Positions 5,062 through 24,880 of a DNA stretch of 24,991 nt are shown here, one piece after another; position 1 is the first letter of the stretch; each line of letters opens with the position of its first letter. The stretch is from an uncultured Gammaproteobacteria bacterium (GTDB lineage: Bacteria > Patescibacteriota > Microgenomatia > CAZETR01 > Amesbacteraceae): the NCBI GenBank assembly GCA_964362965.1, contig CAYIGO010000001.1, forward strand, positions 1 through 24,991, in the 5' to 3' direction. Both the position numbers and the translations under genes were made by a program. The notes under the pieces were generated by a model, which was not told the DNA's origin, searched no databases, and saw only the letters and a list, made by a program, of their open reading frames with translations.

Positions 5062-5670
5062 TCAGTTCAAGGAGTCTGGCAAAAACACTCTCGGATTAAC
5101 TGGTATTCCATATACATTCACCTGGAAATGAAGGTGGACACCAGTTGCCCAACCAGTTTGACCTTGGCCACCGATTACGTCGCTGGTGGTCACCTTTTGG
5201 CCTTTAAAGACGTAGATCTTGTTTAAGTGGGCGTAGATAGTGGTAACGTTGTTGCCATTATTGATGATGATGTGTTTGCCAAACCCCCAGAATATTTCTC
5301 CTGCATAGATGACTGTGCCGTCCATGGCAGGATTGACTGGTTCATCTAGCTTGCTAGCCAGATCAATCCCTGTGTGGAAGACTTGGTACATGCTGGACTG
5401 TGCAAACTCTAGAGTAATGACGCCCTTGGTTGGCCAAACAACCGTTGGGTGAATCTCCGTGGTGACTTCGCCTGTGGTTGGATCTTTGATCTGGATGCTT
5501 TGATTGGTCGGATTCTGGTCTACTAACTTGTCCGAGATGATATTAATACCCACCTGAGTCAGTAGAATGACCGCAATGACAGGCAACATGAGGATAGTGA
5601 GGAAAGCCAGAAGGACGAATTTAAGTTCTTTACGAAACGACCAGAGGGTCAGTACTAGTTTAGGATTCAT
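5062..5670 (-). CDS. Membrane-anchored M23 family peptidase (conjugation-associated cell-wall hydrolase)
   Basis: N-terminal TM helix, HTGID and HLHF zinc motifs, YAHL; last gene of the T4SS operon. Confidence 0.9.
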   Translation of the reverse strand: MNPKLVLTLWSFRKELKFVLLAFLTILMLPVIAVILLTQVGINIISDKLVDQNPTNQSIQIKDPTTGEVTTEIHPTVVWPTKGVITLEFAQSSMYQVFHTGIDLASKLDEPVNPAMDGTVIYAGEIFWGFGKHIIINNGNNVTTIYAHLNKIYVFKGQKVTTSDVIGGQGQTGWATGVHLHFQVNVYGIPVNPRVFLPDSLN

Positions 5671-5672
5671 GG

Positions 5673-7472: not shown

Positions 7473-8085
7473 AGTTATTTCGTAGTAATGCCTCCACGGA
7501 TTCTTTGGTAAGGGGTTGAGTCTTCATACTCTCGCCGTTGTAGAAGCTGTAAAAGAGGTTAAGGATTTCAAGGCCTGTGAGTGATCTAGCTTTCATTTGC
7601 ATGCGTTCCAAGCCTTTGACAATAATGTCTTTCTCAAGATTTAAGTGTTCTTTGATGAGCTTCATGTCTTGGTGGCGCTCAGTGTGTTTGTAGGGAACGA
7701 CAATATAGAATCTACGGGATAGGATTTTATTACCCGAAACTAATTTCTTCACAAATGCACAATATCCCTCAATCTGCTTTTTATAGGCAGGGACTTTTTC
7801 TTTGTCTTTGGTTTTAGCGATATCTTCCAGATACTTATCAATATCCATCTCACGAACCCGAACCAAGATTTGAATTTGGCATGGTAGAGAATTTAAGAAG
7901 TTTTGAAAACTATCAATAATCACATCCTGTTCGTCTTCGCTTTTAAGTTCAAAGTTAACGGAGGAGGTTTCAAGTATCTGACGATATTCGTTATTAGGAA
8001 GCACAAGGATGTTATCCACGACTTCTTTAATCTGGATTTGTTGACGGCTACTGGTACTGCCTGATTTGTGTAATAAGTTCTTCAT
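7465..8085 (-). CDS. T4SS-associated protein (VirB4 N-terminal-like partner)
   Basis: SVNFELKSEDEQDVIIDSFQNFLNSL...IQILVR...RRFYIVVPY resembles the small proteins that precede VirB4; overlaps virB4 by 8 nt. Confidence 0.65.
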   Translation of the reverse strand: MKNLLHKSGSTSSRQQIQIKEVVDNILVLPNNEYRQILETSSVNFELKSEDEQDVIIDSFQNFLNSLPCQIQILVRVREMDIDKYLEDIAKTKDKEKVPAYKKQIEGYCAFVKKLVSGNKILSRRFYIVVPYKHTERHQDMKLIKEHLNLEKDIIVKGLERMQMKARSLTGLEILNLFYSFYNGESMKTQPLTKESVEALLRNNYV

Positions 8086-8086
8086 A

Positions 8087-8563
8087 TTATTTTTTACTTA
8101 GTTGATAGTGCAGGGCAACTTTGCCAGAAGCGATTAAGTGCTCAAACCTAACTTGATCAAGAATATCTAAATTCATATTTTGAGATTTGCTGATCTTCTT
8201 TACGGATTTTTTAACCGCAATCTGCTCAACGGGTAACTCTGGAATATCGAGTGTTCTGCCCGTTAAATCGTTTTTGTTAAATAGATAATATTTTGGCCTC
8301 ATGCGATATTTAAGAAGTACTCCAAACCACTCAGCGACAATCTTGTCTTTAATTCGTAGTGCCAAAATACCTGAGGTAGCCGTAGAGATAATAATGAGCA
8401 CTAACTTTAGTGAGGTGAGCTTCATGCTGGGCAGAAGTAAGATATAAATAATGGCCGTCCATAGAATTGGTGCCATGAGAATTAATATTTGAGTCATATT
8501 GAGGCTCCCTGCAATCTTGTCCTCAACAGTCGTGATTTGTGCTGGGATGATGGTAGTTCTCAT
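8087..8563 (-). CDS. prgI: PrgI family protein
   Basis: IPAQITTVEDKIAGSLNMTQ followed by two TM helices and RPKYY; located upstream of virB4. Confidence 0.8.
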   Translation of the reverse strand: MRTTIIPAQITTVEDKIAGSLNMTQILILMAPILWTAIIYILLLPSMKLTSLKLVLIIISTATSGILALRIKDKIVAEWFGVLLKYRMRPKYYLFNKNDLTGRTLDIPELPVEQIAVKKSVKKISKSQNMNLDILDQVRFEHLIASGKVALHYQLSKK

Positions 8564-9852
8564 AGGTTTGCACTCCTTCTGGGCATCTTAACGGCTCTCG
8601 TCCCCTTATATGCCGTATTGGAGCTTGAATCGGTACTTAAAACATTAGTAATTTGGCTTCCCATATGACGAACTGCGCCCACACTTCTTGAGAAAAGAAT
8701 GAGTTGCATCATGAAGGATGGAATTTTAAGTAGAGTCAGAAGTAAACCAATGGCTACAGCGATGGAAATGAGAGAATTATTGGTGTTTGCTGGCAAAGTG
8801 AGGAATGTTCCGGCTAGTTGAATCGTGACCACATGGACAAAGATCGTAAAGATGGACACAAAATATCCCTTCATGGCCATTTCAGCAAAGTCAGCAGTTT
8901 TAGGAATGGCAGAGAGTAAGAAAATAAAAGGAGAAAGGACAGCACCAAGGCAAATGATAATCAGCCGACTTATATACATAAGGAGTAGTACTATTGCGAC
9001 GATTAGAAAAATGAGTAAGAAGATGAGGATAATAAATGGTGCTGTGCCATTGGTTAAACTCGAGATTGTAATAGCATTCGTGATCCATGCGTGGTTGAGG
9101 CCACCAGTAGCGGATATAACTCCAGACACCAAAGCGTTACTGGCCTTGATTGCATAGTCAGCGAGGAATAATGAGACGTTAGCGCCAAGAAAAGCTAGCC
9201 CAATTCTAGGAAGTAAATGTTTAAACTCGATTTCTTCAAAGCCAAAAGTGGAAGCACTCATAAACTGGAGTCCTAAGAGTGCTACAACGAGTACGAATAA
9301 TGTATCTGTAATCCCAAGCATAATCAGCCAAAACTTGACGATGGATGAGTTTTCAAGAAGTGACGGGGTTGAGCTAAGAAAAGTCATAATCCCGTCAACT
9401 ATTGGCTTGGTGGAACTCTCCACAATGTTTTGAATAAAGCCATTAACGGCATCAATTAAAACTTGGGTTAATCCGTCCCGTGGGGCGATTGTTTCAATCT
9501 GGGTTATAGGAAGTGCGGCAGTACTTGTGTTACTGGGATCGCCGACAAGTGCACCAGTTAAAAGAGAAACAAGGGCGCTTGAAGCAAGGACAATGACTAA
9601 TCCAAGGAGAGCATTGCGAATTGTTTTCTTAGCGTCTTCTAAAGCGTCAGGCCTACCAGTTGAGATGATGTAGACATACCCACCACGAATTAAAAAAAAG
9701 ACCGCTGCTGCGGCCGAGATCATCGTAATGATGGAAAGGGCGTCACTAGTAAATGCTGTCACCTCCGAGGGTACGCTCGTTGCGGCATAGGCTACTGAAG
9801 GTGTAAGAAGGAGTATCAGTATGGTGCTGAGTGCCAATATGATTCGTTTCAT
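8560..9852 (-). CDS. VirB6/TrbL-like polytopic membrane protein with an N-terminal pilin-like domain
   Basis: Signal peptide, then GGYVYIISTGRPDALEDAKKTIRNALLGL (VirB2-like), then several TM helices with SPFIFLL, in T4SS context. Confidence 0.7.
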   Translation of the reverse strand: MKRIILALSTILILLLTPSVAYAATSVPSEVTAFTSDALSIITMISAAAAVFFLIRGGYVYIISTGRPDALEDAKKTIRNALLGLVIVLASSALVSLLTGALVGDPSNTSTAALPITQIETIAPRDGLTQVLIDAVNGFIQNIVESSTKPIVDGIMTFLSSTPSLLENSSIVKFWLIMLGITDTLFVLVVALLGLQFMSASTFGFEEIEFKHLLPRIGLAFLGANVSLFLADYAIKASNALVSGVISATGGLNHAWITNAITISSLTNGTAPFIILIFLLIFLIVAIVLLLMYISRLIIICLGAVLSPFIFLLSAIPKTADFAEMAMKGYFVSIFTIFVHVVTIQLAGTFLTLPANTNNSLISIAVAIGLLLTLLKIPSFMMQLILFSRSVGAVRHMGSQITNVLSTDSSSNTAYKGTRAVKMPRRSANL

Positions 9853-9880
9853 AGTGATTCATAGGTCAAAGATTGACGGG

Positions 9881-10213
9881 TTACGGCGTGACCCCGAATG
9901 CTCCGGTTGCTAAATCAGAGACAATGTTGGTCAAAACAAACGCACCAAGAACTACCGCTAAACCAATCGCTGAATATAAAATGGTTTTTTTGGATCGATC
10001 AAGCATTTCGGGATTCCCGGAACTCGTCATGTATCCCACTCCGCCCCAGACAAAGAAACCGGCGGAAATAAGGCCAGCCAGCGTGACCAACACCTGAATA
10101 GCGCTTTTGATAAATGTTTCAATCTTGGTGACATCAGCCGATGCGGCATACACGGGAACTGCTAAAAGGAGTGAAGCGATGATGAGTGCGTTTACAATAA
10201 TAATCTTTTTCAT
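9881..10213 (-). CDS. TrbC/VirB2-type pilin
   Basis: Signal peptide (VYA/A), GGVGYMTSSGNPEMLDRSKKTILYSAIGL and SD GGAGGTG. Confidence 0.85.
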   Translation of the reverse strand: MKKIIIVNALIIASLLLAVPVYAASADVTKIETFIKSAIQVLVTLAGLISAGFFVWGGVGYMTSSGNPEMLDRSKKTILYSAIGLAVVLGAFVLTNIVSDLATGAFGVTP

Positions 10214-10336: not shown

Positions 10337-12376
10337 CTATTCATACCGCAATGCGTTTAGGGCGGATATTTTTGTTGCTCTGCGTGCCGGATAAATACCG
10401 GTGACCAGTCCAACCAAAAGCGATAAGAAAATAATCACAAAAACAAATGGAAGAGGAATATAGGAAATGTCCACAAAACCCACACCTTTAATAATGGCAA
10501 AAAACGATAAGAAGATGCCAAGAAGCCTCCCTAAAACCCAGCCAAAGATAATCCCCAAGATGCCACCCAAAAATCCCATGATCATTGATTCGGTCAAAAA
10601 CAATTCTGAAACCTCCGAGGATTTCATACCCATCGCTTTCATCAGCCCCACTTCCCGCGTACGCTCCAAAAGCGAAACAGTGAGCGTGTTAAACATGCCA
10701 AGGGCAGCCACAGACAAGGCAACCATGCCTAGTAGCATGAGCACTGTTCGTGCTGTTGCAAACAACGAATTGATTTGCGCCACGGTATCCGCCACCGAAC
10801 GGGTCATATACCCCATGGACTCAATTTGCCGTCTGGTTTTAACGAGTTCATTTTGGTCTTTCACCACCACCTTGGCTTGGGAAAAGTTCGTGATGCCTAA
10901 ACTCCGAAGATCAAGAAACGGCACGTAAAAGAATGGCGTTTTTTCTTCAGGGATCACACCGACAATTGTGTATTCCGCCGAGGATGATTCAATATTGGCT
11001 GACGGATCACTTAACAGATCACCAACCACCACAAATGTGGTCATAAATTTCTTACCAAGCGCTTCGGCTTCTTTAATGCCCAACACCGAGAGCATTGCTC
11101 GATTCACAACTGCCTCACGTTTGGCAGATGTGGAAAGATCCACGGTTTTTGTTTCGGCAGGTTTAATAATGCCGGCCTCCGAGGCAATATCGACCCAATT
11201 CACACCCGCACTTCCTGACGCATCGGAGCTGACGCCTAAGACTTTCGGCTCTGAAATGTTCACTCCTGATAATGTAAGTCCTATCTCTGCAAAATATCCA
11301 GCCTTTTGGATTTGTGTGTTGTCTTCATCACGGGCTACCAGATATTTTCCGCCTTCGCAGTCTCCCTGGGTTGCGGGGTCGCACTTTTCGCTTTTCCACA
11401 GGAGCACCTCTGCCTTCATCCATTTTCCGATCATTTTCCCGTCTTCTGTTTCTCCAAAAGTGCCTATGCCGTCATCTGATTCATATTTCCCTCCCCAAAC
11501 CTCCTCGCCTTGCGGAGACCCTTCCACTCGTTTGGTATACCCAATGATCTTGCCTGTCGTTGACGGATTTTCGCGCACGCGTATCCACGTTCCCGGATCA
11601 ATGATAAAGTCCACATCCTGGATTTTTTCACCTATTACTCCGACTTTTTGTTCCGTCGACACACCAGCTACCTGACCTCTGAGAGAGGAAACATCAAAAG
11701 ATAATTCATTACTCTCAAACACTTTTCCGTCCACCGGCTTGATGGCTGATTGCTTGAGATAATCAGTCGTGACACCATACACCGCCATATCCGTGACAGA
11801 GTTTAAGTAGTTTACTCGTCCGACTACTGCAATGAGTGGCAACGCCATATCTACTGAGGTAATTTCTTTAAAATTTGCCAGTGTTTGATCATTAATTTTT
11901 ACTTTTCCTCCGGGTTGAGGGGAAACATCAGCTTGTTTCATCTCGTCAAGCCGAGCCACCCGAGTAATGACCAGTCGTTCAAAACCGTAGCCCATGGACA
12001 CTAAAAAGACAATCGCGCCAATCCCAATCGTCATGCCACCAACGGTAATAGAGGTCCGTGTTCTTTTGGACTTCATATTGCGTAAGGAAAGCTCGATCAA
12101 CTCGACTCTTGAAATAGACCCCGTTCGTTGCAGATCAAGAAAAAACATGGCACGGGTATACCCACGAGTGGATGCTTTGATCACTTTTTGAAAGAGTCTG
12201 CTTTGGATCAATCTTCGTCCAATACCATGGGTTTTTGTTTCCAAGAGAAACACCATCAAGGCGCAGGCTTTGGCAAAAAGAAAAACCATCAACAGCACCA
12301 CAAATGTCGTCACCTTCCAAAAGTTGGTTTTCAGATCTATAAAAAATTTCTTGATTTTTTCTTTACGTGTTGGCAT
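10337..12376 (-). CDS. MacB/FtsX-family ABC transporter permease with an enlarged extracytoplasmic domain
   Basis: LRNMKSKRTRTSITVGGMTIGIGAIV, SLLERTREVGLMKAMG, and the C-terminal GIYPARRATKISALNALRYE. Confidence 0.92.
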   Translation of the reverse strand: MPTRKEKIKKFFIDLKTNFWKVTTFVVLLMVFLFAKACALMVFLLETKTHGIGRRLIQSRLFQKVIKASTRGYTRAMFFLDLQRTGSISRVELIELSLRNMKSKRTRTSITVGGMTIGIGAIVFLVSMGYGFERLVITRVARLDEMKQADVSPQPGGKVKINDQTLANFKEITSVDMALPLIAVVGRVNYLNSVTDMAVYGVTTDYLKQSAIKPVDGKVFESNELSFDVSSLRGQVAGVSTEQKVGVIGEKIQDVDFIIDPGTWIRVRENPSTTGKIIGYTKRVEGSPQGEEVWGGKYESDDGIGTFGETEDGKMIGKWMKAEVLLWKSEKCDPATQGDCEGGKYLVARDEDNTQIQKAGYFAEIGLTLSGVNISEPKVLGVSSDASGSAGVNWVDIASEAGIIKPAETKTVDLSTSAKREAVVNRAMLSVLGIKEAEALGKKFMTTFVVVGDLLSDPSANIESSSAEYTIVGVIPEEKTPFFYVPFLDLRSLGITNFSQAKVVVKDQNELVKTRRQIESMGYMTRSVADTVAQINSLFATARTVLMLLGMVALSVAALGMFNTLTVSLLERTREVGLMKAMGMKSSEVSELFLTESMIMGFLGGILGIIFGWVLGRLLGIFLSFFAIIKGVGFVDISYIPLPFVFVIIFLSLLVGLVTGIYPARRATKISALNALRYE

Positions 12377-13127
12377 AGGATGGTGTTCCGCTTCCGCGTT
12401 TCCCTTTAATTTCTAACAATAATGATTCTTTATCTTTTTCCCCATATTCTCCGACGATGGTCCCGTTAAACATCTTGACTGCGGTTTTGGCAAAGGTGAG
12501 GTATTCCAAATCGTGCGTGACCATGAGTATTGTTTTTGCCTGGTCTCTGTTGAGCGTAACGAGCAAACGCATCAGTTCCTGTCCCGATTCAAAGTCCAGA
12601 TTTCCGGTGGGTTCATCGGCAATAATGACCTCGGGATTTGTTACGAGGGCCCGGGCCAGGGCGACTTTTTGCTGTTGACCACTTGAGAGTTCGGTAGGCG
12701 CATAATTCGACCATTCACCCATCCCCATGACTTCAAGCATAGTGTGTGCTTTTTCCAAGCTTTCACTCTTTAATCTGCCCATCAACACCAAGGGGAAGGC
12801 TACATTTTCCACCACGGTGAGCGACTTAATCCAGTTGGGCTGCTGGTACACCATCCCCACATGGTTTTTACGAAAATCACTGCGTTGATCTTCATCCATG
12901 CCCGCATACAAATTTTTAGTAAGAAACAGACAGGTTCCTGTACTTGGCGCTTCCAGTCCGAGAATCGTATGCAGGAGCGTTGATTTCCCACATCCTGATG
13001 GGCCAAAGATGACACAAAAATCATTTTGGTTTACTTCAAAAGAGATGTCTTTTAACACCGGCACGTCCTGCTTGCCCACATGGAATGATTTGGAGAGATG
13101 GTCGACTTGAATGATGGCGTTTATCAT
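12363..13127 (-). CDS. ABC transporter ATP-binding protein (MacB/LolD type)
   Basis: GPSGCGKST, LSSGQQQKV, IIADEPTGNLD and VTHD motifs. Confidence 0.95.
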   Translation of the reverse strand: MINAIIQVDHLSKSFHVGKQDVPVLKDISFEVNQNDFCVIFGPSGCGKSTLLHTILGLEAPSTGTCLFLTKNLYAGMDEDQRSDFRKNHVGMVYQQPNWIKSLTVVENVAFPLVLMGRLKSESLEKAHTMLEVMGMGEWSNYAPTELSSGQQQKVALARALVTNPEVIIADEPTGNLDFESGQELMRLLVTLNRDQAKTILMVTHDLEYLTFAKTAVKMFNGTIVGEYGEKDKESLLLEIKGKRGSGTPSYANT

Positions 13128-13131
13128 AGTA

Positions 13132-16100
13132 TTACTTTTTGAAGCCTCCTAAAAATCCAAAGGCTCCTTGTAAATTCATAATGACGAGGTTCAGTGCATT
13201 CTCCGTGGCTTTCGGCGTAATGGTGACGGTATCAATGGAGTTGCCGAGATTTCCTGCTTTGTCTTTAGATAGAGAGCGTAGGTGATACACCTTTGATGGC
13301 GTGAGATTGGAGATAATCACAATGTGGTTAAAGGTTAGGTTGCTGTCCTCTTGGGTCTTTTGGGCATACGTTGTTCCTGTCCCTTCGCCAAACTCGACTT
13401 GCGATGTTCCTGGTTCGTCGGTGTTCCAGGACACAATCAGTTGAGCCGTTTGTTCCTGAGCGGTCTGCGTAACCGCGGGGATATTGCTTCCTTCCACATG
13501 GAGATCCGAAATCTGTGGCGGCCGGGTATCGGTGGCGGTGGTCAGCCGTTGGGAATCAGAAGTGGCTTCGTTGCCCACCTTATCCCTGCCTTTGACGACC
13601 AACATATAGTCCGTTTGGGGTAAAAGGCTCCGCACAATCATCCGATGATCACCTTTAGTTAAAGCCACGTTGACTTCATCCCGAGCGTCACCAGTCTGTC
13701 CTTCGGGGTAGTACGTCACAATGGAAGAGACCTCGGTATTTGTTGTCCAGGTGATGAGAATCGTGGATTGGGCGGTGTTGGCCACCTGTTGAATACGGAC
13801 ATTGGTAATTTTTGGTCGGGGGAGCGTGGTAAAGTCGAGCGTTGTTCCTTCGTACTCCGTGCTATCAGAATCAAAGGTATTGATTTTGTAGTAATACTTC
13901 GTGCCGTCAGATAAACCGGTGAGTTCCGTGGTGTAGGTCGTTTCGGATGTAGAGGTCGACACCTCTTTTGATCCGCCAAACGAGGTGGTGGTGCCGTAAT
14001 AAATTTTGACCTTGCTGGCGTTTGAACTCGTGTATTGAATGGTCGTCGTGGTAAGCCCGATGCTTTTAGCCAGGACGTCCTTGACGGTTGGAGCCGCATT
14101 TGTGGAAAAACTTTTCTCATCAGATGTGCCGGTATTCCCATCTTCATCCGTCCATTTGGTTTTGTAGTAGTAGGTGGTTCCCGGATTCAGTCCCGTCAAC
14201 TGAATCGAGTGCGAGGTGACCTGTGAAGAATTACTGGGTTCCACCGTGTTGTAACTTCCGCTGGTCGTCCCATATTGCACCTTGGAATCACTTGTGCGTG
14301 AAGTTGACCACGTGATGGTTGCCTTTTTGGTCGTGAGGCTTCCCGCACTTGGTCCAGTATCAATCGTTGGGGCTGTTGTCCATTTGCCGGTCGGCGTGAT
14401 GGATACGGCATTGGTTCCCGAACTTTGCGCAGCCGCTCCATCTTTGGTGTACACCTTGTAATAATATTTGGCAGAAGACGGTGTGGTGTCCACATACGAA
14501 AGACCGGTCGTTGTTCCTACTTGAGTAAAGGTGCTGTTATCCGTTGACCGTTTGACGAGATAGGTGAGATTTCCTGCTCCTTGATAGGTGGGTGCGACCC
14601 ACGTGAGAGTGACATTCCATTGCGAGGACGCTTTGATACTACTGTCTGACGCAACCACACTGCCTACATTGTCCGGATCAGTTGAGCTGAGTGTAAAGGT
14701 GCCGGAGATGTAGTTTGACGGTGAATAGTTGGGCGTTGTGGCATTGTCAATTGCCACCACATACACCGTATTGGTCCCTTTGTTCACACCGGGGAGTGCT
14801 GCGGCAGCAACGGTTCGTGTGGTGCTGTTGTCAATATAGGTCGATGCGTTTCCTTGAAGCGTGGCTAACGTGCTTGGCGGCGAGGTATTGATCATGTAGT
14901 AGTAATGCGCCACTGAATTTGATCCTGATGGGGTAGCAGTTGGCCAACTGAGTGCATATGAATTTGCGGTAGACGTTATTGGCGTCACCGTGACGGTATC
15001 CGTTCCGCCAAACGCCGGAGCCGCTCCTCCATACGAAAGGTTGCAGGTTCTTATGGTTCCATCGCTTGAGGTATTTCCTGCCGCATCCACCGTACGGAAA
15101 TAGACCACATTTGTTCCCGAGACGATGGATGAGCCGTCCTGAGATTGCGATAATGTTCTCCCCGTTTCCGAGGAAAGAATGTAGTTGGTCACACCAAGCA
15201 ATGATTCCGTGGTTGTCCCGAGCCATGTTCCCGACGTGGAGTTGATCTGATACTGCCAACCATACAGTCCGGCGTTGGAATCAGTCGATGCGGATAAACC
15301 GGAAGTCGGCCAATTAAAACTCATATCTGCCACGTTGGAAAAACTGCCTGATGCGCAGGAAATATACGTCACGTTGGCCGGTGCAGTGTTATCAAACCGG
15401 AACTGAAACTGAGCCGATGAGCCGGAAAAAATGTTTCCGGAGTTATCAACCGCTTTGATATTGAAATAATACGGAGAGCTGGACGTGGTCAGTGCCGTCC
15501 CGATATATCCGCTGGTTGCCAGATCCACACTGGTAGCCGAGACAATAAACTGGCAGGTGGTACCGGCAGTTGAAACAGGAGAAGTGCCTAGGAGTCCCTT
15601 TGCTGTTGCCGGATTGCCAGCTATGTCTGTTCCCAAATACAGACAGTACCCTTTAAGTCCCGATCCGCCGGCGTTATCTGCTCCAGCCGTCCATGAATAA
15701 TAGGGTGACGATCCCTTCGTCCAGGCATTGGAAGACATACTCGTTCCGCCATTTGAGCGGGTCATGGCAACGGTCGATGCGTTGGTCGTCGGGGCGGTGG
15801 TATCGGTTGTCAGTCCTATAGAAACGTGAGGCAATAAAGGGACATCATTCCCACCAAATGTCAGGATTGCCTTGACCGAGATTCTTTGGGAAGTAATCGG
15901 GAGGGCTTGCATGGCCGACTGGGTAAGTTGAGCTGCCGTGTTCACTGTGGTTGTGGTATCGGTGGCGCTTGCCCACGCGCTTCCGGTCCAGTATTTCCAG
16001 GATGATCCTGACTGGCAAGTTGAGCCGTCATCGGTGCAGAGTTGATACTTGATCGCTGCGTTGCCGGTCGCGGTAGAATCGGTAGTGCAGGTTGATCCGG

Positions 16101-16410
16101 CAAGCGTCCCTTCGCAAAACGTATCCCAGGTGTTGACCTGCGCATTGGAGTAGGCGCTGGTGGTATAGACGCTATAGGTGCCTTGTTTGGAAAGCGTAAA
16201 GTCATCGACCTTGACCGTTTTTCCCGCCTTCACCAATACGCCATACTCGCGAGACGCATTGGCGCCGGTCAGCGTCCCCGACAGTTTCCACCACCCCGAT
16301 CCGGCATCCGTGTAGGTGGTAGCAATCGTTGCGCCATTGTAGTAGAGCTGAGCAATAGAGGAAGTAATAGTCCCGCCGACATTGCCTGTGGTCGTATCGT
16401 AGACATACAC
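13132..16410 (-). CDS. C-terminal part of the DGR target: Thr/Ser-rich fibronectin type III repeat surface protein
   Basis: Repeats such as TITWSTSRTSDSKVQYG...HSIQLTGLNPGTTYYYK. No signal peptide of its own. The frame stays open upstream to 16602. Confidence 0.85.
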   Translation of the reverse strand: MYVYDTTTGNVGGTITSSIAQLYYNGATIATTYTDAGSGWWKLSGTLTGANASREYGVLVKAGKTVKVDDFTLSKQGTYSVYTTSAYSNAQVNTWDTFCEGTLAGSTCTTDSTATGNAAIKYQLCTDDGSTCQSGSSWKYWTGSAWASATDTTTTVNTAAQLTQSAMQALPITSQRISVKAILTFGGNDVPLLPHVSIGLTTDTTAPTTNASTVAMTRSNGGTSMSSNAWTKGSSPYYSWTAGADNAGGSGLKGYCLYLGTDIAGNPATAKGLLGTSPVSTAGTTCQFIVSATSVDLATSGYIGTALTTSSSPYYFNIKAVDNSGNIFSGSSAQFQFRFDNTAPANVTYISCASGSFSNVADMSFNWPTSGLSASTDSNAGLYGWQYQINSTSGTWLGTTTESLLGVTNYILSSETGRTLSQSQDGSSIVSGTNVVYFRTVDAAGNTSSDGTIRTCNLSYGGAAPAFGGTDTVTVTPITSTANSYALSWPTATPSGSNSVAHYYYMINTSPPSTLATLQGNASTYIDNSTTRTVAAAALPGVNKGTNTVYVVAIDNATTPNYSPSNYISGTFTLSSTDPDNVGSVVASDSSIKASSQWNVTLTWVAPTYQGAGNLTYLVKRSTDNSTFTQVGTTTGLSYVDTTPSSAKYYYKVYTKDGAAAQSSGTNAVSITPTGKWTTAPTIDTGPSAGSLTTKKATITWSTSRTSDSKVQYGTTSGSYNTVEPSNSSQVTSHSIQLTGLNPGTTYYYKTKWTDEDGNTGTSDEKSFSTNAAPTVKDVLAKSIGLTTTTIQYTSSNASKVKIYYGTTTSFGGSKEVSTSTSETTYTTELTGLSDGTKYYYKINTFDSDSTEYEGTTLDFTTLPRPKITNVRIQQVANTAQSTILITWTTNTEVSSIVTYYPEGQTGDARDEVNVALTKGDHRMIVRSLLPQTDYMLVVKGRDKVGNEATSDSQRLTTATDTRPPQISDLHVEGSNIPAVTQTAQEQTAQLIVSWNTDEPGTSQVEFGEGTGTTYAQKTQEDSNLTFNHIVIISNLTPSKVYHLRSLSKDKAGNLGNSIDTVTITPKATENALNLVIMNLQGAFGFLGGFKK

Positions 16411-16500
16411 GGAGAAATCATAGGTTGAGGTGTCACCAACATTGACTGACTGGTAGATTTTTCCGTCCGAGATTGAGCCTATAGTAACGGTATCGCCACC

Positions 16501-16515
16501 GGCCGCTGCGCGGCC
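16501..16515 (-). promoter_or_regulatory. DGR target-recognition hairpin downstream of VR/IMH
   Basis: GGCCGC-GCA-GCGGCC (6-bp GC stem, 3-nt loop), about 35 nt after the VR and inside coding sequence. Confidence 0.7.
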
Positions 16516-16555
16516 AGAAGAAGAGGAGAAAGAGTGAGAGATGGCTACGGGATCA

Positions 16556-16668
16556 CTGGCGCAACGAAAGCCAACGTTGCTGTACGTTCCCCGGCGCGAA
16601 AATCAGATACGCTGTGAACGCCCCGGCGTAGGACGTGCTAAACCAATGGCCGCCGCGCTAGAAGGCGT
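16556..16668 (-). repeat. DGR variable repeat (VR)
   Basis: Matches 20054-20168 with 14 substitutions, all opposite TR adenines, plus a 2-nt deletion. Homology continues to 16551 with one C/T difference (IMH versus IMH*). Confidence 0.97.
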
Positions 16669-17797
16669 AGACAGTTGAAGCAGCGGAACCAGAGTTGTGA
16701 TAGATTCTTCCAACACCGTAGGTGGCATCATAGGCAGATGCAAGTGGGCGATAGGCATCGTAGGTCAATGAGCCATATGAAGTAAGTGCAGTAAATTCCC
16801 GCCAAGCAAAACCCGATTGACCACTAACATCGGGTTGGTTTGCTTCGGTAATGGTGTCATTGGTCCATTCCCAAACGTTGCCAGGGATGTCCCAAATGTA
16901 GGCGCCGTTACTCAGTGTGAGAACGCGTTTTTGATTGCCAGCTGTTCCTGAAGTATTGTTCGCAGTATTTGTGGGACAGGAACTGGGGGCTTCGGTGGTA
17001 CCGGCAGTATCGGTGTAGGCGCAGGCATTGTTGCCGGTATCGGTCGTGGAAGCAACCACTGCCAGAGCCGGTGCGTTGTCATTGTGTCCGGCGTAAAGGT
17101 AACCGCTCCCGACTGAACCCAAACTCCAGTTACCGGCTTGGGCTTCGGCGTTTCGTGCAACCGTCATCCATTCATTGTTGGTAATAAGGTGAGTCGCACT
17201 GCCATTGATAGAGACAGTAGAACAGCGGGTGATGGCGTTGGTTTGAGAAACGTTCGCTATTGGATATCCAGAGGCAACCGAGACGACTGCTTTGGAGTTG
17301 GCGCTGGTACAGGCAGTCCCTGAATCGGAATACGTATGATATCCTGAATCAGGAGAGGTAAGTCCTGTTGTCAAGTCAGAGGTGGCTGCACATTTTGCTT
17401 CATATTTCATGGCCAAAAATTCAGTCGTAGAATAGGTGGCATCTGCTGGAACCGCAACCCAACCGGCAGGCGCTACTGCTGCCACACTCCAGGAAGTATT
17501 GTTGCTGGCAAAGGCGGGATTCGTGAGTTTATTGGCAACCGAGTGCGCTCCCGTATCATCAACCGTGACCAGCGTGGAATCGTAGGTGTACGTACCAGCA
17601 TTCGCCGTATTAAATGTCCAGGTTTTAGCGGTGTCATTGAGCGCAAAAATGCTGGTGATGCCTTTGAGCGTCAGATACGAGCCGGCGATGAGCCCGACGG
17701 TGATAAACAGAAGGGCAACAAGATTAAACTGAAACCGCGAAAAATGGAAGCGTGGGGTAAAGAGGTAGGTTTTGAGTTTAATTAATATTTGTCTCAT
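16658..17797 (-). CDS. N-terminal part of the DGR target: TM/signal plus CLec-fold (FGE-sulfatase-like) domain, truncated by TAG in the VR
   Basis: FLAMKYEA, HLITNNEWMTVARN and IWDIPGNVWEW motifs; the RGGxW motif follows immediately after the stop. Confidence 0.9.
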   Translation of the reverse strand: MRQILIKLKTYLFTPRFHFSRFQFNLVALLFITVGLIAGSYLTLKGITSIFALNDTAKTWTFNTANAGTYTYDSTLVTVDDTGAHSVANKLTNPAFASNNTSWSVAAVAPAGWVAVPADATYSTTEFLAMKYEAKCAATSDLTTGLTSPDSGYHTYSDSGTACTSANSKAVVSVASGYPIANVSQTNAITRCSTVSINGSATHLITNNEWMTVARNAEAQAGNWSLGSVGSGYLYAGHNDNAPALAVVASTTDTGNNACAYTDTAGTTEAPSSCPTNTANNTSGTAGNQKRVLTLSNGAYIWDIPGNVWEWTNDTITEANQPDVSGQSGFAWREFTALTSYGSLTYDAYRPLASAYDATYGVGRIYHNSGSAASTVYAF

Positions 17798-18615
17798 GTT
17801 AGTTTCTTTATACTTCCATTATTCAGTAACGACCGCATCTGAACGATAGCAATTTGATTCAGTTGAACTAGACGATCTGATTGGGATATTTTTCTTCTGA
17901 TTAACTCAGCGTTTATACCTTCCAAATTGGCCAAGACAACCAATTGAGTTACGTCAGCGTAATCACGAATATTTCCATCTTTGTTCGAATTTTCGTCACG
18001 CCAATCTTTAGCTGTTTTTCCAAACAGAGCTACATTGAGAACATCTGCTTCGCTGGCATAAACCATGTTGGCTCTATTGCCAGTGACATTTTCAGGAATT
18101 AAGTGTTCTTGAATTGCATCCGCGTGGATCTTGTAGTTAATTTTTGTGAGAGTTCTTTTGACATCCCAGCCAAGCGCCAGTTTTTGACTTTCTTCTTCTT
18201 TTAGTCGTTGGAATTCTTTGATTAAATACAATTTGAATTCAGCAGAGATCCAAGATGCAAACTCAAAGGCGATATCCTTATGGGCATATGTGCCACCAGT
18301 TCTTCCTTTTTTTGAAACCAATCCTATTGCATTGGTGGACTCTGTCCATTTTTTTGGAGTTAAAGAAAAGCTATTTAACCCTGCTTTTTGTCTAAATCCA
18401 TCGAATTCGATGGATTTAAAATCAGGATTATTTATCTTTTCCCAAAGTCCCAAAAATTCTATCGTGTCACGATTACGGAGCCAGTTTTGAATTATATAAT
18501 CACTTCTGTCCTCATCTTTATATCTGGCGATATCAGTCAAAGAGATATAGTCAGATTCCTTTTTAAAAAAAATGACAATTTCTATGCCTTTAACTGTAAT
18601 TTTTGTATTAGTCAT
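17794..18615 (-). CDS. KilA-N domain DNA-binding protein
   Basis: DYISLTDIA...IQNWLRNRDTIEFLGLWE...GGTYAHKDIAFEFASWIS. Its stop overlaps the target start (ATGA). Alternative starts at 18627 and 18630. Confidence 0.85.
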   Translation of the reverse strand: MTNTKITVKGIEIVIFFKKESDYISLTDIARYKDEDRSDYIIQNWLRNRDTIEFLGLWEKINNPDFKSIEFDGFRQKAGLNSFSLTPKKWTESTNAIGLVSKKGRTGGTYAHKDIAFEFASWISAEFKLYLIKEFQRLKEEESQKLALGWDVKRTLTKINYKIHADAIQEHLIPENVTGNRANMVYASEADVLNVALFGKTAKDWRDENSNKDGNIRDYADVTQLVVLANLEGINAELIRRKISQSDRLVQLNQIAIVQMRSLLNNGSIKKLT

Positions 18616-18728
18616 ATTTTTTCTCATCATTCAAAAATGCTCAAACACATACAAACAAAACGGCTGCTATGCAACCCCATACAATCATAATAGTATTTCT
18701 GAAAGAAATTGCAACGTTGCAAACTGCA

Positions 18729-19877
18729 TCACGGTCTCAATAGATGTTTTGTCAATCCGTGGCTATTGGCATGTTTGAAATGACCAATAATCGAGGCCTT
18801 TGTTTCGGCAAGTTTTTTGCTGGTTATCCGGCCATTTTTTACTTGTTTTTCTTTGGAGCGGTAGTTGCGCTCAATCCGGCGAAGCGTGGTACCACGAACC
18901 AGTACATGATCATAAAATGTCCGATACCCAACAAATGGCACTCCAGTTGAAACATTTTTGATGGTGAGTTTTTTAGGATGCAGGCAAAGATGGAGTTTCT
19001 CTTGGAGAAAAGCATCAATTGTCGCACAAAGCTGTTGTAAATACGTACGGTCGTGGTGCAACACAAAAAAGTCGTCCATATACCGCCCATACCAACGTAC
19101 TCTGAGACGGTCTTTAATAAAGTGGTCGAGTTCATTGAGGTAAATATTGGCAAAGAGCTGGCTCGTCAGATTGCCGATTGGTAAACCAGTTCTGTGCTTG
19201 ACCGAAATACTTGCTTTCGCACCATCCGAACTTGAATCAAAAAGAGAGAGCTGTGAGGGAACAAGTCTTTGGGGTGCTGTTAAATGGTGATGCGACGTAA
19301 CGATCGTTTGAATCAGTGCTAATGTTTTTGGGCAGTGAACGGTTTTACCCATAATCCGAAGAAGAATATCCCAGGATACACTTTGGAAGAATTTACGGAT
19401 GTCACACTGAAGAACATAGATTGACGTATTTTTACCATGAAAAGATCGGGCTGCCATGAGGAATTTTTTTAATCGCTTGGCAGCAAGATGTGTGCCTTTG
19501 TCTGTACGACATGCATAGGAGTCGTAAATAAATTGTTTTTCAAACAAGGGCTGGATCACATTGACTAATGCGTGTTGGATAACTCTATCTCGGAAATCCG
19601 GCGCGGCGATACTCCTGGTTTTTGGATCATGAAGCATGAAATAGGTATATGGACGCGGTACATATAGGCCCTGATCCAATTCCCATCGCAAATCAAAGAG
19701 GTTTTCCTCAAGTGAAAACGTGAACGCGCAAATCTTTCGCTTATAGCGATTATCCAGTTGTGCCTGCGTATGCGCGTACAATAAATTTTCTAAATTACAT
19801 AGCTGTGTATACATAAAACGACAAACCCCGCTCTCACAAGCAGGGCTTGTCTTCTTGTACCCCATTTCTGTTTTCAC
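18729..19877 (-). CDS. DGR reverse transcriptase (start uncertain: 19877, 19862 or 19814)
   Basis: FRDRVIQHA, DSYACR..KGTH, QCDIRKFF, GLPIGNLTSQLFAN (the DGR-type SQ motif) and YMDD; no maturase or endonuclease domain. Confidence 0.97.
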   Translation of the reverse strand: MKTEMGYKKTSPACESGVCRFMYTQLCNLENLLYAHTQAQLDNRYKRKICAFTFSLEENLFDLRWELDQGLYVPRPYTYFMLHDPKTRSIAAPDFRDRVIQHALVNVIQPLFEKQFIYDSYACRTDKGTHLAAKRLKKFLMAARSFHGKNTSIYVLQCDIRKFFQSVSWDILLRIMGKTVHCPKTLALIQTIVTSHHHLTAPQRLVPSQLSLFDSSSDGAKASISVKHRTGLPIGNLTSQLFANIYLNELDHFIKDRLRVRWYGRYMDDFFVLHHDRTYLQQLCATIDAFLQEKLHLCLHPKKLTIKNVSTGVPFVGYRTFYDHVLVRGTTLRRIERNYRSKEKQVKNGRITSKKLAETKASIIGHFKHANSHGLTKHLLRP

Positions 19878-20046: not shown

Positions 20047-20053
20047 GAGATCG

Positions 20054-20168
20054 CTGGCGCAACGAAAGCCAATGTTGTTGTTCGTATTCCCCGGCGTGTT
20101 ATTCAGATTCGCTGTGAACGCCCCGGCGTTGGACGTGTTATTCCAATTGCCGCCGCGTTAGAAGGCGT
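20054..20168 (-). ncRNA. DGR template repeat (TR)
   Basis: Non-coding, between avd and RT. In the target frame it has 11 AAY codons (aat tgg aat aac ... aat acg aac aac aac att) and one TAA. Confidence 0.97.
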
Positions 20169-20199: not shown

Positions 20200-20541
20200 T
20201 CATACACTTCGTGGCCCCATCCAACTTGAGAGCATCCGTCCGACTTCATTGAGCTTTTCAGCAGTCGTCACATATTGCTTAACACTCATAAGGCGCGTAT
20301 CTTTGGTAAGCCGCACTATGATACGCAAATAATCCAACGTGTCCGATGCTTCAGTTTGTAGGGCATTTCTTTCAATTCCTCGTGCTTTATTGGCTTTCAT
20401 GAGAAACATGAGAAGTGAGAGCGCCAATTCTTCAAGTCTTCTTCCGAGAATATGACGGTGATTTTTGGGTAAACGGTTGATGATGGGGTACAAGTAGAGG
20501 ATAAAATCGTAGGTTTTTTGGTGCAGGATGAATTTTTCCAT
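20200..20541 (-). CDS. avd: DGR accessory variability determinant (four-helix bundle)
   Basis: 113-aa basic helical protein (LPKNHRHILGRRLEE...LRIIVRL...EVGRMLSSW), directly upstream of the TR. Confidence 0.92.
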   Translation of the reverse strand: MEKFILHQKTYDFILYLYPIINRLPKNHRHILGRRLEELALSLLMFLMKANKARGIERNALQTEASDTLDYLRIIVRLTKDTRLMSVKQYVTTAEKLNEVGRMLSSWMGPRSV

Positions 20542-21322: not shown

Positions 21323-21357
21323 ATAACACCCTGGGGAATAATTCTTCGGGGTGTTAT
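21323..21357. terminator. Hairpin between convergent genes, probable bidirectional terminator
   Basis: ATAACACCC...GGGTGTTAT 9-bp perfect stem, extendable with G-T pairs. Confidence 0.6.
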
Positions 21358-22127
21358 TCGTCAGATGGTTCTACTTTTTCCCACTCACCAGAAAATGCAC
21401 CGTCTTGCGTGGTGACATATATTGATGTTTGATCAAGAGATGATTCGTCATAGATTTTTGCTAGGTATTTTTTGAGATATATTTGAATGCCTAATGTAGG
21501 GCAGATTAAAAGAATGGTTGGGAATGGGTGGCTTGTGACTTCTTCAAATGTGCCGTTATCAATGTAGTCGGTATATTGTTCGATGCGTTTTCGCAGAGTA
21601 AAGCGTGGCGCTCCCTCGTCGATAACTTCAACAAAATATCGTTTGGTTTCTAGTTTTTCATCGACTCGGGCAAAATAGGCATCAGGTAACGGATGGATAA
21701 TATATTTGTGAGCGAGTAAATCTGTTTTGGTGAAGAAATGAAGCGTGTGTTTTGATTTGGCTGATTCAGTGGTGAGATATTGATAATATTGGGCGATAAA
21801 TAAGGCGTGGGAAATAAATTGTTGAGATCTGATTTTTTCTCGATAAATTCGTTGGAGTGTTTTTGTCTCTATACCTTCGATGTTTTGTAATACCTTGATA
21901 CTACCTGAGGCAAGAAAATAAATAGCTGGTTGGTTCCCTGATCCAAGTGAACGGGTGTAGTGTTTGTTTATGTAATTTTGTGAAGTGAGAATTTTAAGAT
22001 GGTAATTTGTGAGGCGTGGTGTTTTGTCATTGAGTAAGTGTTGAATGTGGGTGCTGGTGAGAAATCGAAATCGGTAAAGTAGTTTGAGAATAGTACGTTG
22101 TTTGTCTGTAAGTGTTGGGTTGTCCAT
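21354..22127 (-). CDS. Replication-relaxation family protein (putative relaxase)
   Basis: N-terminal wHTH (LLYRFRFLTSTHIQ), ISH, then PDAYF...YFVEVI (PD-(D/E)xK-like); adjacent to the coupling protein. Confidence 0.8.
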   Translation of the reverse strand: MDNPTLTDKQRTILKLLYRFRFLTSTHIQHLLNDKTPRLTNYHLKILTSQNYINKHYTRSLGSGNQPAIYFLASGSIKVLQNIEGIETKTLQRIYREKIRSQQFISHALFIAQYYQYLTTESAKSKHTLHFFTKTDLLAHKYIIHPLPDAYFARVDEKLETKRYFVEVIDEGAPRFTLRKRIEQYTDYIDNGTFEEVTSHPFPTILLICPTLGIQIYLKKYLAKIYDESSLDQTSIYVTTQDGAFSGEWEKVEPSDE

Positions 22128-22276: not shown

Positions 22277-24880
22277 TTACGGAACGACTACTTTTACCTT
22301 TCCAGATGATACATTTTTCACTTGTCTTTGGACTACAGCTACCGCCTCATACTTTTTTGCATAAGACTTCCTCGATGACTCAACTACTTCATCTATTCTG
22401 CTTTGACTAAATGGCATATGAACTGGTGTCGTAACTCCTGAAAATGGTTCTTCTGGATTAAGTGCGCCAAGTCTCATATAGAAATGGTATGAAGGAAGAC
22501 TGGCAATCTCCCCTTGAGCAATATAGGGCTGGAACTGTGGCAAGATCATCCGCTCATCTTCTGGGTTGGCCGTTCGGAAACAGATAACCGTACCAGTATT
22601 AGCGAGCGTTATATTGACCAGTGAAATATCTTCAAGCTGAGATGTAGTTTGGTGAGCCAGTATTGCACCCAATCGATACTTACGAGCCTCTGAGAGGATT
22701 TGAGCAAACGCAGGAGTGGCAAAGTTTTGGAACTCATCAACATATAGGAAGAAGTCTTTTCTGTCTTCTGCTTTCATTCTGGCACGTTTAAGCGCCGACA
22801 ACTGGATCTTTGCCATGATAAGCACTCCGAAAACACTGGAATTATCTTCACCAACCTTACCTTTAGCGAGATTGCAAAGAAGTATTTTACCCTCATTCAT
22901 TATTGTGTCGAAGTTTATAGTGGATTTGCCTTGTTCAAGTATTCGCTTAGCAGTTGGTGAAAAGAGGAAACGCCCAATCTTATTCGTAATTGGCGAAATC
23001 ATTTTTACCTTTTGGTAGTCTCCAGCTTTGGCGAATTCATACTTCCAAAAGTCCAAGAGATTTTCGTCTTTCAAGTTACGGACGACTGATTTTCTAAAAG
23101 GTGTATTAATCAGGAGTTTGTAGACCGTGAATAAGGTAGCGTCAGGAACAGTAAAAGCCGTATGAATAGTATTTCTTAAGATGTATTCCATCCTTGGCCC
23201 TGAGTACTTATCAGTATAGATTTTATGGAAGACTGAGATAATACTTTCGGCGATAAATTCTTTTTCTCGAATCGTATCCTCTTCGTTTAAGCCTGGAGTC
23301 AGTTCAAGTAGGTTAATGCCCATTGGATAACCGATATCATCAGGATTAAAGTAAACCACATCAGCAATACGCTCTCTGGGAATAACAGATAAAATTTGCT
23401 CAATTAAGTCTCCGTGTGGATCAATGACACTTAAGCCCTTATGGTTTTTTATATCCTGTTCGATCATTGACAAAAGCATGGTTGATTTTCCAGTACCTGT
23501 AGCTCCCAAGATATAGACATGGCGACGACGTTCATCGGCCGTCAAGCCTATCTTGGTTTCAGTGCCACCGTAGGTATTGTTTGCAAAATATATATCGAGC
23601 TCAGTCTTTTGTTTTAAAGATAATGGAGCTGGTAATTCTTTGCTATGTAACTTTGATAAGTTTTCGGTTTTAGTGATACTGGTATAGGGAAAGTGATAGA
23701 GATCGGACAATTCAGACGTCGAGAGAATCAGATTGCCCATAAAGCCAAATAATCGGCGTCTGTAGAGCCACAATAATAGATTATTGATTGCCTTTATCTT
23801 GAGGTATCTTTTTGGTCGTAGATTTTGATAGCCTGCATTAGTAAATGGACTAAGCGCTGCGATAAAACCCTTTTCAATTCTTGACCTGCTAGAGTAGACA
23901 CTTGAGATAGTCAGATATCTTAAAGAAACGGTAAACAACTGCTGATCAATTTTTTGTTTAATCTGGGTTTCCACGATATCTCTGTATGTGCTATCAGGTA
24001 GCTGAGCTTTCAAAGAATTGATGGATAAAATTGGCCCCTCTCGACCACCAGTTAATATCCAGATTACTAAACCAAGGGGAAATAAAAGAATTTGTAAGGC
24101 GATATAAACAATCGCTAAAAAGATGGAGCCAGCTACATTAGATCCCTTTAACTCTGATAGAACATCCTTCTTCCCTAAAAAGAGTGAGCGGAGACGTCCA
24201 ACAAATTGAGCTGTCGGCCTACTAACAGTAGATACAACCATTTGCACGGCCACCAACTCATTCTCAGCCAGCTTAGTCATTGTTCCTGTGATATAGGCAA
24301 TGGGGTCATATTCGGCAAGATTGTCTTGTTTCTTAAGAGGAAAAGCGAAGTGATTAGTCAAACTGATATCTATGACATGTCCTTGGTCGTTTGTCTTAAG
24401 ATAATCACTGGTTTCTTTTACTTGTATGCCAGGCAAGTATGCGATGAGATTCTTTTTGATGATTTGAGCATCATCCGCTGAAAGCCTCAAAATATATCTA
24501 ATACCCTTATCTTTTGTGGAAGCAATTTCAAATGAATACGACTTGGTAACGTCAAATAACCTGAGTAACCAAGAACGCTGGCGCAGTAACCCATGAACTG
24601 AGGTGAATAGCTGAGTAGTAGTAAAAGAACTTTGTTCTGTTGAGGTTGGAGGTGATACTTCAAACAAGGTCGCAGGCTTAATGGATTCTTTCCAAGATAG
24701 ATATAGTTTTACAACCTGATACGTCACCCAGAGAACAAGGACGAGCAATATAGTCAAAACCAGATATGGTCTATATGTGTTAAAGAAACTATAGAAAATT
24801 GTGAAATACGGATTTAAGAAGTTGCCTAAGCCGACAAGTTCTTTTTCTAGGATTGTGAATATAAGATTATTTTTCAACAT
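22277..24880 (-). CDS. Type IV coupling protein-like ATPase (VirD4/TraD/TrwB family) with N-terminal membrane region
   Basis: RRRHVYILGATGTGKST, IDPHGDL, Walker B YVDEFQNF, and SEARKYRL...AHQ. Confidence 0.88.
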   Translation of the reverse strand: MLKNNLIFTILEKELVGLGNFLNPYFTIFYSFFNTYRPYLVLTILLVLVLWVTYQVVKLYLSWKESIKPATLFEVSPPTSTEQSSFTTTQLFTSVHGLLRQRSWLLRLFDVTKSYSFEIASTKDKGIRYILRLSADDAQIIKKNLIAYLPGIQVKETSDYLKTNDQGHVIDISLTNHFAFPLKKQDNLAEYDPIAYITGTMTKLAENELVAVQMVVSTVSRPTAQFVGRLRSLFLGKKDVLSELKGSNVAGSIFLAIVYIALQILLFPLGLVIWILTGGREGPILSINSLKAQLPDSTYRDIVETQIKQKIDQQLFTVSLRYLTISSVYSSRSRIEKGFIAALSPFTNAGYQNLRPKRYLKIKAINNLLLWLYRRRLFGFMGNLILSTSELSDLYHFPYTSITKTENLSKLHSKELPAPLSLKQKTELDIYFANNTYGGTETKIGLTADERRRHVYILGATGTGKSTMLLSMIEQDIKNHKGLSVIDPHGDLIEQILSVIPRERIADVVYFNPDDIGYPMGINLLELTPGLNEEDTIREKEFIAESIISVFHKIYTDKYSGPRMEYILRNTIHTAFTVPDATLFTVYKLLINTPFRKSVVRNLKDENLLDFWKYEFAKAGDYQKVKMISPITNKIGRFLFSPTAKRILEQGKSTINFDTIMNEGKILLCNLAKGKVGEDNSSVFGVLIMAKIQLSALKRARMKAEDRKDFFLYVDEFQNFATPAFAQILSEARKYRLGAILAHQTTSQLEDISLVNITLANTGTVICFRTANPEDERMILPQFQPYIAQGEIASLPSYHFYMRLGALNPEEPFSGVTTPVHMPFSQSRIDEVVESSRKSYAKKYEAVAVVQRQVKNVSSGKVKVVVP

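Follow-up and report, generated by a model that had tools for sequence, protein, structure and literature searches.

A stop codon in the template repeat of a DGR, and ON and OFF alleles of its target gene, on a predicted conjugative element of a Patescibacteria bacterium

The window, meaning the whole stretch of 24,991 nucleotides analysed here, is contig C1 of a 682-kb assembly with an estimated completeness of 90% and a GC content of 39.6%. The runs holding the window were groundwater metagenomes, and its relatives were Patescibacteria. Judged from its gene content, the locus is a DGR located on the conjugative element of a CPR (Patescibacteria) bacterium, with the following features:

22277-24880, minus strand: Type IV coupling protein gene
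21354-22127, minus strand: Replic_Relax protein gene
20200-20541, minus strand: avd (accessory variability determinant; PF22296 bAvd, 2.4e-22; phrog_3206, 2.2e-25)
20049-20168, minus strand: template repeat (TR), based on repeat families D1 and D7, the VR alignment and the identical TR in L008 and L005
20160-20073, minus strand: mutable tract of the TR
about 20072-20049, minus strand: IMH*-like 3' end of the TR
20158-20160, minus strand: in-frame TAA in the TR, its 5'-most mutable codon, replacing the Leu before RGGxW
18729-19877, minus strand: DGR reverse transcriptase (RT; PF00078, 8.8e-23; phrog_1423, 7e-111)
17794-18630, minus strand: KilA-N gene, a lineage-specific accessory between RT and target (PF04383, 1.5e-23)
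17797-13132, minus strand: target gene, whole
16658-17797, minus strand: N-terminal part of the target, with a hydrophobic stretch near the N-terminus, then the first part of an FGE-sulfatase/C-type-lectin-like domain
16551-16668, minus strand: variable repeat (VR), inside the target gene, codons ~377-415 of ~1555
16658-16660, minus strand: TAG in the VR at the site of the TAA (OFF allele), terminating a 379-aa N-terminal ORF (17797-16658)
16586-16587, minus strand: site of a frame-shifting 2-nt deletion in the VR, opposite TR 20087-20086, in GGG AAT ACG
16501-16515, minus strand: GC hairpin GGCCGC-GCA-GCGGCC, candidate target-recognition element, lying 36 nt beyond the 3' end of TR/VR homology (16551)
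13132-16584, minus strand: C-terminal part of the target, an open frame from GFRCASD with beta-sandwich and FN3 repeats (Pfam fn3, Pur_ac_phosph_N)
12363-13127, minus strand: ABC ATPase, directly after the target gene
10337-12376, minus strand: MacB/FtsX-type permease, after the ABC ATPase (the pair spans 10337-13127)
5062-10213, minus strand: T4SS pilins, PrgI, VirB4-like ATPase and M23 peptidase
297-986: tRNA-Gly and tRNA-Pro

Both the RT and Avd genes were intact in the window, and the RT gene (18729-19877) was placed in a tree among the RTs of 56 related DGR loci. An exact look-up of the RT protein returned one short Logan contig only. The slot between RT and target, compared among the window (17794-18630), L147:2475-3311, L142:3946-4464 and L009, varied by lineage and held KilA-N (as in the window), Bro-N, an NYN nuclease or no gene. 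The ABC ATPase and MacB/FtsX permease behind the target were an arrangement common to the window, L008, L142, L147 and L153; by polarity, these downstream genes might also be expressed less when the VR holds a stop. Beside the T4SS genes lay genes for an ABC-3C SMEK/CTD10 protein (4031-4999) and a DUF2326 protein (2093-3880), possibly an element-borne defence module.

An initial annotation, made from the letters of the window, had claimed that the template of this DGR encodes a stop codon, and the readings on which it relied were reproduced. On the minus strand, the TR reads GCC TTC TAA CGC GGC GGC at 20166-20149, with TAA at 20160-20158, and the VR reads GCC TTC TAG CGC GGC GGC at 16668-16651, with TAG at 16660-16658; the sole difference in the codon is the reported A-to-G change, from TR A20158 to VR G16658. 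The reading frame is right, giving the family's conserved ..YAF-x-RGGxW..GFRCASD motif, and homologues had Leu at the position of the TAA, mostly as CTN. Base-by-base comparison placed 16 of 16 TR-to-VR substitutions in the mutable tract at TR adenines. The first non-adenine mismatches lie outside that tract, upstream of 20168 and at 20053 within the IMH-like end, and TR and VR part after GGCTTTCGTTGCGCCAG, at 16555/16550. The remaining adenine-bearing TR codons are AAT, AAC, ACG, ACA, ATT, AGC and GAT, which agrees with the earlier statement that the other variable codons are stop-proof, and the count of three stops among the 16 TNN codons was also correct. An assembly error in the TR is excluded by the recurrence of the TAA-bearing TR in L008 (ENA), in L005 (Logan) and in contigs of the runs X1, X2 and X6. 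Folding of the hairpin at 16515-16501 gave -8 to -9.5 kcal/mol, with a z-score of only -1.06. As TAG is an ordinary stop in the genome of the window, the window holds an OFF allele, and its VR is OFF for a second reason too, the 2-nt deletion.

The target frame is broken twice in the window, by the TAG and by the deletion, and mending both on paper gives ~1555 codons. When the 1150 residues that follow the VR were used as query, a large family came up in which full-length homologues of 1520-1580 aa are the norm; in these, the VR-bearing FGE-sulfatase/lectin-like domain is internal and is followed by FN3-type repeats; about one sixth of the matches were fragments of ~1100-1175 aa that start in or just after the VR. 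Many database proteins of the family end in frame-shifted readings of GFRCASDP ('WLSLRQ', 'AFAAPVIP'). The N-terminal hydrophobic stretch, as read off the translation, is a likely membrane anchor. PF03781 scored 22 bits on the truncated target ORF, just below its cut-off of 23.3, and was present among the precomputed matches of the full-length product P0001 and other homologues. A profile match of the target to SUMF2 (1y4j) aligned VLRGASW..GFRCA, but an AF2 model of the VR region (A2) was too poor to confirm the fold, with a pLDDT of 30-60 over the lectin-like part. Within the GTDB family of the window, one target homologue was found (G009), a 406-aa paralogue with Ile at the site of the stop and no DGR seen in its 3.9-kb locus.

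The same element was present in other assemblies, with both ON and OFF alleles beside an identical TR, as the switch proposed in the initial annotation would have it. In L008 (ENA ERZ2470813) the TR with its TAA was identical, and the VR had the full TR length and TTA (Leu) at the codon, an ON allele; its target was an intact, 1451-aa open product (P0001), 100% identical to the C-terminal part in the window and joined to the N-part. The OFF codon TAG was found in the window, L006 and L007. L006 (ENA, Hainich well H52) had the VR of the window, with TAG and the 2-nt deletion, while L007 (Logan ERR3654040, X2 contig) had a third VR that differed at 12 positions, was in frame and again carried TAG. 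The deletion was absent from L007/X2 ('AG' inserted behind 16587) and from L008. An apparent extra lesion in L006, which split the downstream ORF (527+551), was rejected, being a run of 10 N. Thus, three VR haplotypes of the element of the window accompanied one constant TR, a sign of DGR activity, and the TR region had no differences in the X1, X2 and X6 contigs. Across 16560-16649, the contigs of X1 and X6 are interrupted or skip, and an X7 contig begins at 16660; these breaks, as contig-level data, hint at a mixture of codons within populations. Comparison of L008, L006, L007 and the X contigs therefore indicates that the template stop is reproducible, that the VR is turning over and that the codon occurs both as sense and as stop.

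Two collection scans with the VR-region alignment (A2) yielded 62 TR/VR pairs, 58 of them unique, from a Patescibacteria family. The TR codon before RGG was mostly CTN across the 58 pairs, with ATC in 2, CAA in 2 and TAA in 9. The alignments of the TAA-type pairs were inspected by eye, and these loci had the following VRs:

window (this genome), TAA-type TR: VR codon TAG, VR frame shifted (-2)
L008 (same element as the window), TAA-type TR: VR codon TTA, VR frame intact
L017 (Moraniibacteriota), TAA-type TR: VR codon TGT, VR frame intact
L026 (Roizmanbacteria), TAA-type TR: VR codon TTA, VR frame intact
L033 (Shapirobacteria), TAA-type TR: VR codon TTA, VR frame intact
L063 (Hainich well H43), TAA-type TR: VR codon TGA, VR frame intact
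L068 (metagenome), TAA-type TR: VR codon TAG, VR frame intact
L099 (metagenome), TAA-type TR: VR codon TGA, VR frame shifted (+1)
L120 (metagenome), TAA-type TR: VR codon TAA, VR frame shifted (+1)

The outcomes TAA, TAG, TGA, TTA and TGT indicate that retrohoming reaches the TAA codon. The initial annotation had noted that its proposal would fall if cDNA never extended to this 5' part of the VR; all three stops, together with sense codons that derive from TAA only (e.g., TGT), answer that doubt. It had also looked to conservation of TAA in homologous TRs, which was borne out in part. The codon is not a private mutation, being found in 9 of 58 pairs and in at least four RT lineages, but the nearest relative, L009 (target 91% identical), carries CTC in TR and VR alike. 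TAA is thus not required for the system to work.

Within lineages, the VR had also changed beside a single template. The L063 lineage had one TR and three VR haplotypes (TGA, TGA and TAG), and three Logan contigs end inside the codon, which likewise hints at mixtures within samples. In the L099 lineage, L146 equals L142 in the 5' part of the VR (TGA, +1 insertion) but differs from it in the 3' part; this indicates that partial, 3'-anchored rewrites occur, so that two VR haplotypes of the element of the window can share one TAG. Truncated N-terminal fragments added the OFF lineages L153, L154/155 and L156/157, which were excluded from the frequency estimate because they were found by a truncation search. 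Fragments ending in ..AF on short Logan contigs (L149, L151, L152) were rejected as contig ends rather than stops.

Some loci of the family deviated at the same or at other codons. L024 (734-860) had a template stop at another codon, TAG in the TR versus TTG (Leu) in the VR, and in L028 (3270-3400, 8418-8540), an OFF locus, both repeats had TGA where RGGxW has its Trp. In four or five loci (L029, L035/L104, L077, L083), the codon before RGG was CTT/CTC in the TR and CGT/CGC in the VR, a recurrent, non-adenine change from Leu to Arg for which adenine mutagenesis is no explanation. Many TPA MAG records with the Patescibacteria-type locus (L010, L011, L014, L018-L020, L028 and others) are titled Pseudomonadales or Gammaproteobacteria, and these labels look unreliable.

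Copying was adenine-specific throughout the family, with 47% of TR adenine sites changed in the VR (to G in 54%, T in 27% and C in 19%) versus 2% of non-adenine sites. At the codon before RGG, 14 of 24 adenines were changed, whereas those of the IMH-like end were never changed in the TR/VR pairs of the family. A 5'-to-3' conversion gradient that would spare the TAA codon was not seen in the long run, as 46% of adenines were changed in both halves. Taken together with the unchanged IMH-like end, this makes TAA the first codon of the mutable tract. Without selection, the expected share of stops from TAA is 0.55 per full rewrite at the family's 47% adenine-change rate, and ~0.62 with the bRT misincorporation rate measured at 30.65% (PMC12875486). 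The figure of 3 in 16 in the initial annotation, valid for the codons, therefore does not hold per full rewrite, where about half of the adenines stay A and stops make up ~0.55. The observed share among TAA-type loci was 5/9, in a small sample of loci that are not fully independent. Since this equals the expectation without selection, a tolerated by-product and a selected switch would account for it equally well.

Targets broken in the VR were more prevalent at TAA-type loci (5/9) than at the others (7/49; Fisher p = 0.014). Among the sense alleles of TAA-type loci, Leu was enriched (3/4 versus 0.22 expected, p = 0.04), and frameshifts accompanied three of the five stop alleles versus 6/53 others (p = 0.023). 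Frameshifting indels relative to the own TR were present in 9/58 VRs (L010-L141 set), with +3 nt in one further VR; as these include non-TAA loci, OFF alleles do not depend on TAA, and VR-broken targets are common where the template has no stop. Wu et al. attribute VR indels to slippage at AAC (PMC5758913).

The TAA trait required seven changes on the tree of target flanks and five on the RT tree, at least four of the latter being forced by well-supported branches. On the RT tree, TAA-type loci paired as L026+L068, L033+L099 and L017+L120, and their sisters carry CAA, CTA or CTC. A single origin of TAA-type TRs, with all TAA rows held together, was rejected (AU p = 1.6e-5), and the trees thus suggest several origins or losses of the TAA template, which occurs in at least four RT lineages. 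Outside the VR, the target was under long-term purifying selection, with dN/dS of 0.04-0.15, a range that also holds for pairs of lineages now both OFF. The ~1139 downstream codons were fully open in the OFF loci WIN, L063, L099 and L120 (the contig of L068 spans only 226 of them), and the TAA pair L017/L120 had diverged by a dS of ~0.8-1.0. These results imply that the template stop has coexisted with a gene that was functional in the long term. OFF alleles are, by the same comparison, young relative to the target gene.

The reading that best joins these observations, to which we give a probability of roughly 0.7, is that an active DGR (avd, TR and RT) on a conjugative element of Patescibacteria rewrites the internal VR of a gene for a ~1555-aa surface protein and thereby writes ON and OFF states. 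With TAA at the 5'-most mutable codon of the TR, where relatives mostly have an adenine-free Leu codon, each rewrite that reaches it would install TNN at codon 380; roughly half of the outcomes would be stops (TAA, TAG or TGA) and the others Leu, Phe, Ser, Tyr, Cys or Trp. Transfer from TR to VR presumably proceeds through cDNA. Both OFF lesions of the window, the TAG and the 2-nt slip deletion, lie inside the tract covered by the TR, so that a later rewrite could remove them, and switching within a lineage would then be reversible. If the truncated product is non-functional, the net effect would be that the surface protein, besides being diversified, varies between ON and OFF in a stochastic and heritable way. 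On the alleles compared here, DGR-written ON/OFF variation in this Patescibacteria family is real and recurrent.

Why the template carries a stop is a separate question. It is a tentative suggestion, at clearly less than even odds, that the stop is a selected device, by which one retroelement both diversifies the binding head of an adhesin-like surface protein and phase-varies its presence. Partial 3'-anchored rewrites would then diversify the protein without switching, full-length rewrites would re-roll ON and OFF, and cells in the OFF state would draw some benefit. The main rival assumes no direct selection on the TR: TAA arose there by mutation of a 5'-edge codon (Leu, CAA or TTA) and persists, imposing a load of dead alleles without any benefit from OFF cells. 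This too is a serious possibility that falls short of an even chance. The agreement of the stop share with its neutral expectation is what a by-product would give, TAA is one step from the CAA found in the sister TRs L020 and L124, and the nearest relative works with CTC. The frameshifts gathered by stop alleles are as relaxed selection on dead alleles would give, and the enrichment of Leu is as if only the ancestral residue works well. However, a cost incurred in about half of full rewrites ought not to last in a gene under such strong constraint, yet TAA has been kept in at least four RT lineages and across a dS of ~1. OFF alleles are moreover the consensus in several populations and samples rather than rare variants, and other near-stop TR codons (TGG, CAG, TTG) are almost never stops, with two cases versus the nine TAA-type loci.

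Other explanations take the stop allele itself to be damage, harmless or unreal. That the target is a pseudogene and the DGR on its way out, with TAG and deletion as mere damage, is improbable: two lesions in one VR would suit it, and Wu et al. (2018; PMC5758913), who removed elements with premature stops from their set, dropped over half of their candidate DGRs for premature stops or truncations, yet both lesions of the window fall within the TR-covered tract and none elsewhere in 4.7 kb, neither RT nor Avd is damaged, the VR keeps changing from sample to sample, and the same element has an ON allele in L008. Read-through of the stop, by TAG recoding, suppression or a programmed event, such that the protein is made anyway, is very unlikely. 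The open downstream frame of the in-frame TAG allele L007 is an indirect point in its favor. Against it, TAG terminates 80 of 428 long ORFs (19%) with short same-frame extensions after it, no tRNA-CUA was among the 26 tRNAs found in the genome, and both RF1 (with the PxT motif as PMT, and GGQ) and RF2 (437 bits) are present; relatives have TAA and TGA at the site, which no single recoding covers, and the window has a frameshift as well. A TAG flagged upstream of prfA was discarded, being the stop codon of rpmE. The RF1 gene (G000:C35:4915-5787) follows directly after rpmE and encodes 297 aa, without ~48 N-terminal positions of the prfA model and with PMT and GGQ kept. An assembly artefact, in which variants of the population, or reads from TR and VR, would be joined into a chimeric VR consensus, has a negligible chance of being right. 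The VR is heterogeneous and contigs break in it, as such a chimera would have it, but TAG and TGA are absent from the TR sequence, VR-specific letters flank the codon on both sides within one k-mer, the alleles recur in independent assemblies and assemblers (ENA, JGI, Logan, NCBI), and chimeras of equal-length variants make no indels.

With canonical DGRs (Bordetella phage BPP-1 Mtd/Avd/bRT, Treponema TvpA and Legionella LdtA), the element of the window shares avd, TR and RT, adenine-specific TR-to-VR copying from an AAY-rich TR, and the RGGxW...GFRC part of the FGE-sulfatase/CLec-like domain in the VR; a GC-rich IMH-like end and a downstream hairpin are candidates for further common features. 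It differs from them in that its TR holds an in-frame stop at a mutable position, and in that its VR is internal, with ~1175 residues following, so that three quarters of the protein is lost with a stop or frameshift. Like the DGRs described from Patescibacteria (CPR; clade 2, Roux et al., 2021, PMC8144416; Wu et al., 2018, PMC5758913), it is cellular and belongs to an ultra-small groundwater bacterium, and, as in the CPR DGRs of Wu et al. (PMC5758913), non-canonical changes (non-A substitutions, indels beside AAY) are frequent. As searched, PMC8144416 and PMC5758913 make no mention of template-encoded stops or ON/OFF alleles, both of which are present here. One DGR survey other than that of Wu et al. 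is silent on stops altogether. Engineered kanR repair reporters (Guo et al., 2011, PMC3240598; PMC12875486) are similar in that TR stops are copied to the target and adenines mutagenised; there, however, the stop is the gene's terminator and was placed by the experimenter, whereas here it occurs naturally, lies within the gene and recurs across a gene family. In the DGR literature searched, coverage of which was incomplete, these reporters were the only stops in TRs found, and neither a natural stop encoded by a template nor ON/OFF variation driven by a DGR was found described.

Codon choice in TRs is described as avoiding nonsense (bioRxiv 10.1101/2024.11.15.621889; PMC10907252; PMC4159848; PMC12875486), with AAA codons noted as an exception in one DGR paper. 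According to papers on DGRs up to 2026, templates are built against nonsense codons and the RT has a bias of its own against their production; the present case contradicts this rule: the template stop sits at one fixed codon in several RT lineages, and truncated alleles dominate natural populations while the gene is under strong purifying selection. A DGR can thus toggle the presence of a gene besides varying a binding site, and it may be that a real biological state is lost from surveys when DGRs with premature stops are dropped. With classical phase variation (slipped-strand repeats, invertible promoters, conjugative-pilus shufflons), the system shares stochastic, heritable ON/OFF variation through a built-in, locus-specific mutational device, and, as at contingency loci, the ON and OFF alleles of the element of the window coexist in natural populations. 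Unlike at those loci, the device is RT-templated rewriting instead of slippage or site-specific recombination, and each event also alters the binding site. If the stop is indeed a selected device, this would be phase variation driven by an RT and maintained in several lineages of Patescibacteria. The locus itself makes it easy to ask whether reverse transcription serves bacteria as a means of phase variation.

The locus is also of interest for the way in which ultra-small episymbionts cope with the cost of a 1555-aa surface protein encoded on a mobile element. As speculation, cells in the OFF state might be over-represented in the small-filter planktonic fractions from which the groundwater samples of this element derive. 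Among distant relatives of the N-terminal part of the target (P0191-P0240), a prepilin-type N-terminal domain (PF07963) is fused to the FGE-sulfatase domain, giving pilin-like lectin proteins of about 400-560 aa.
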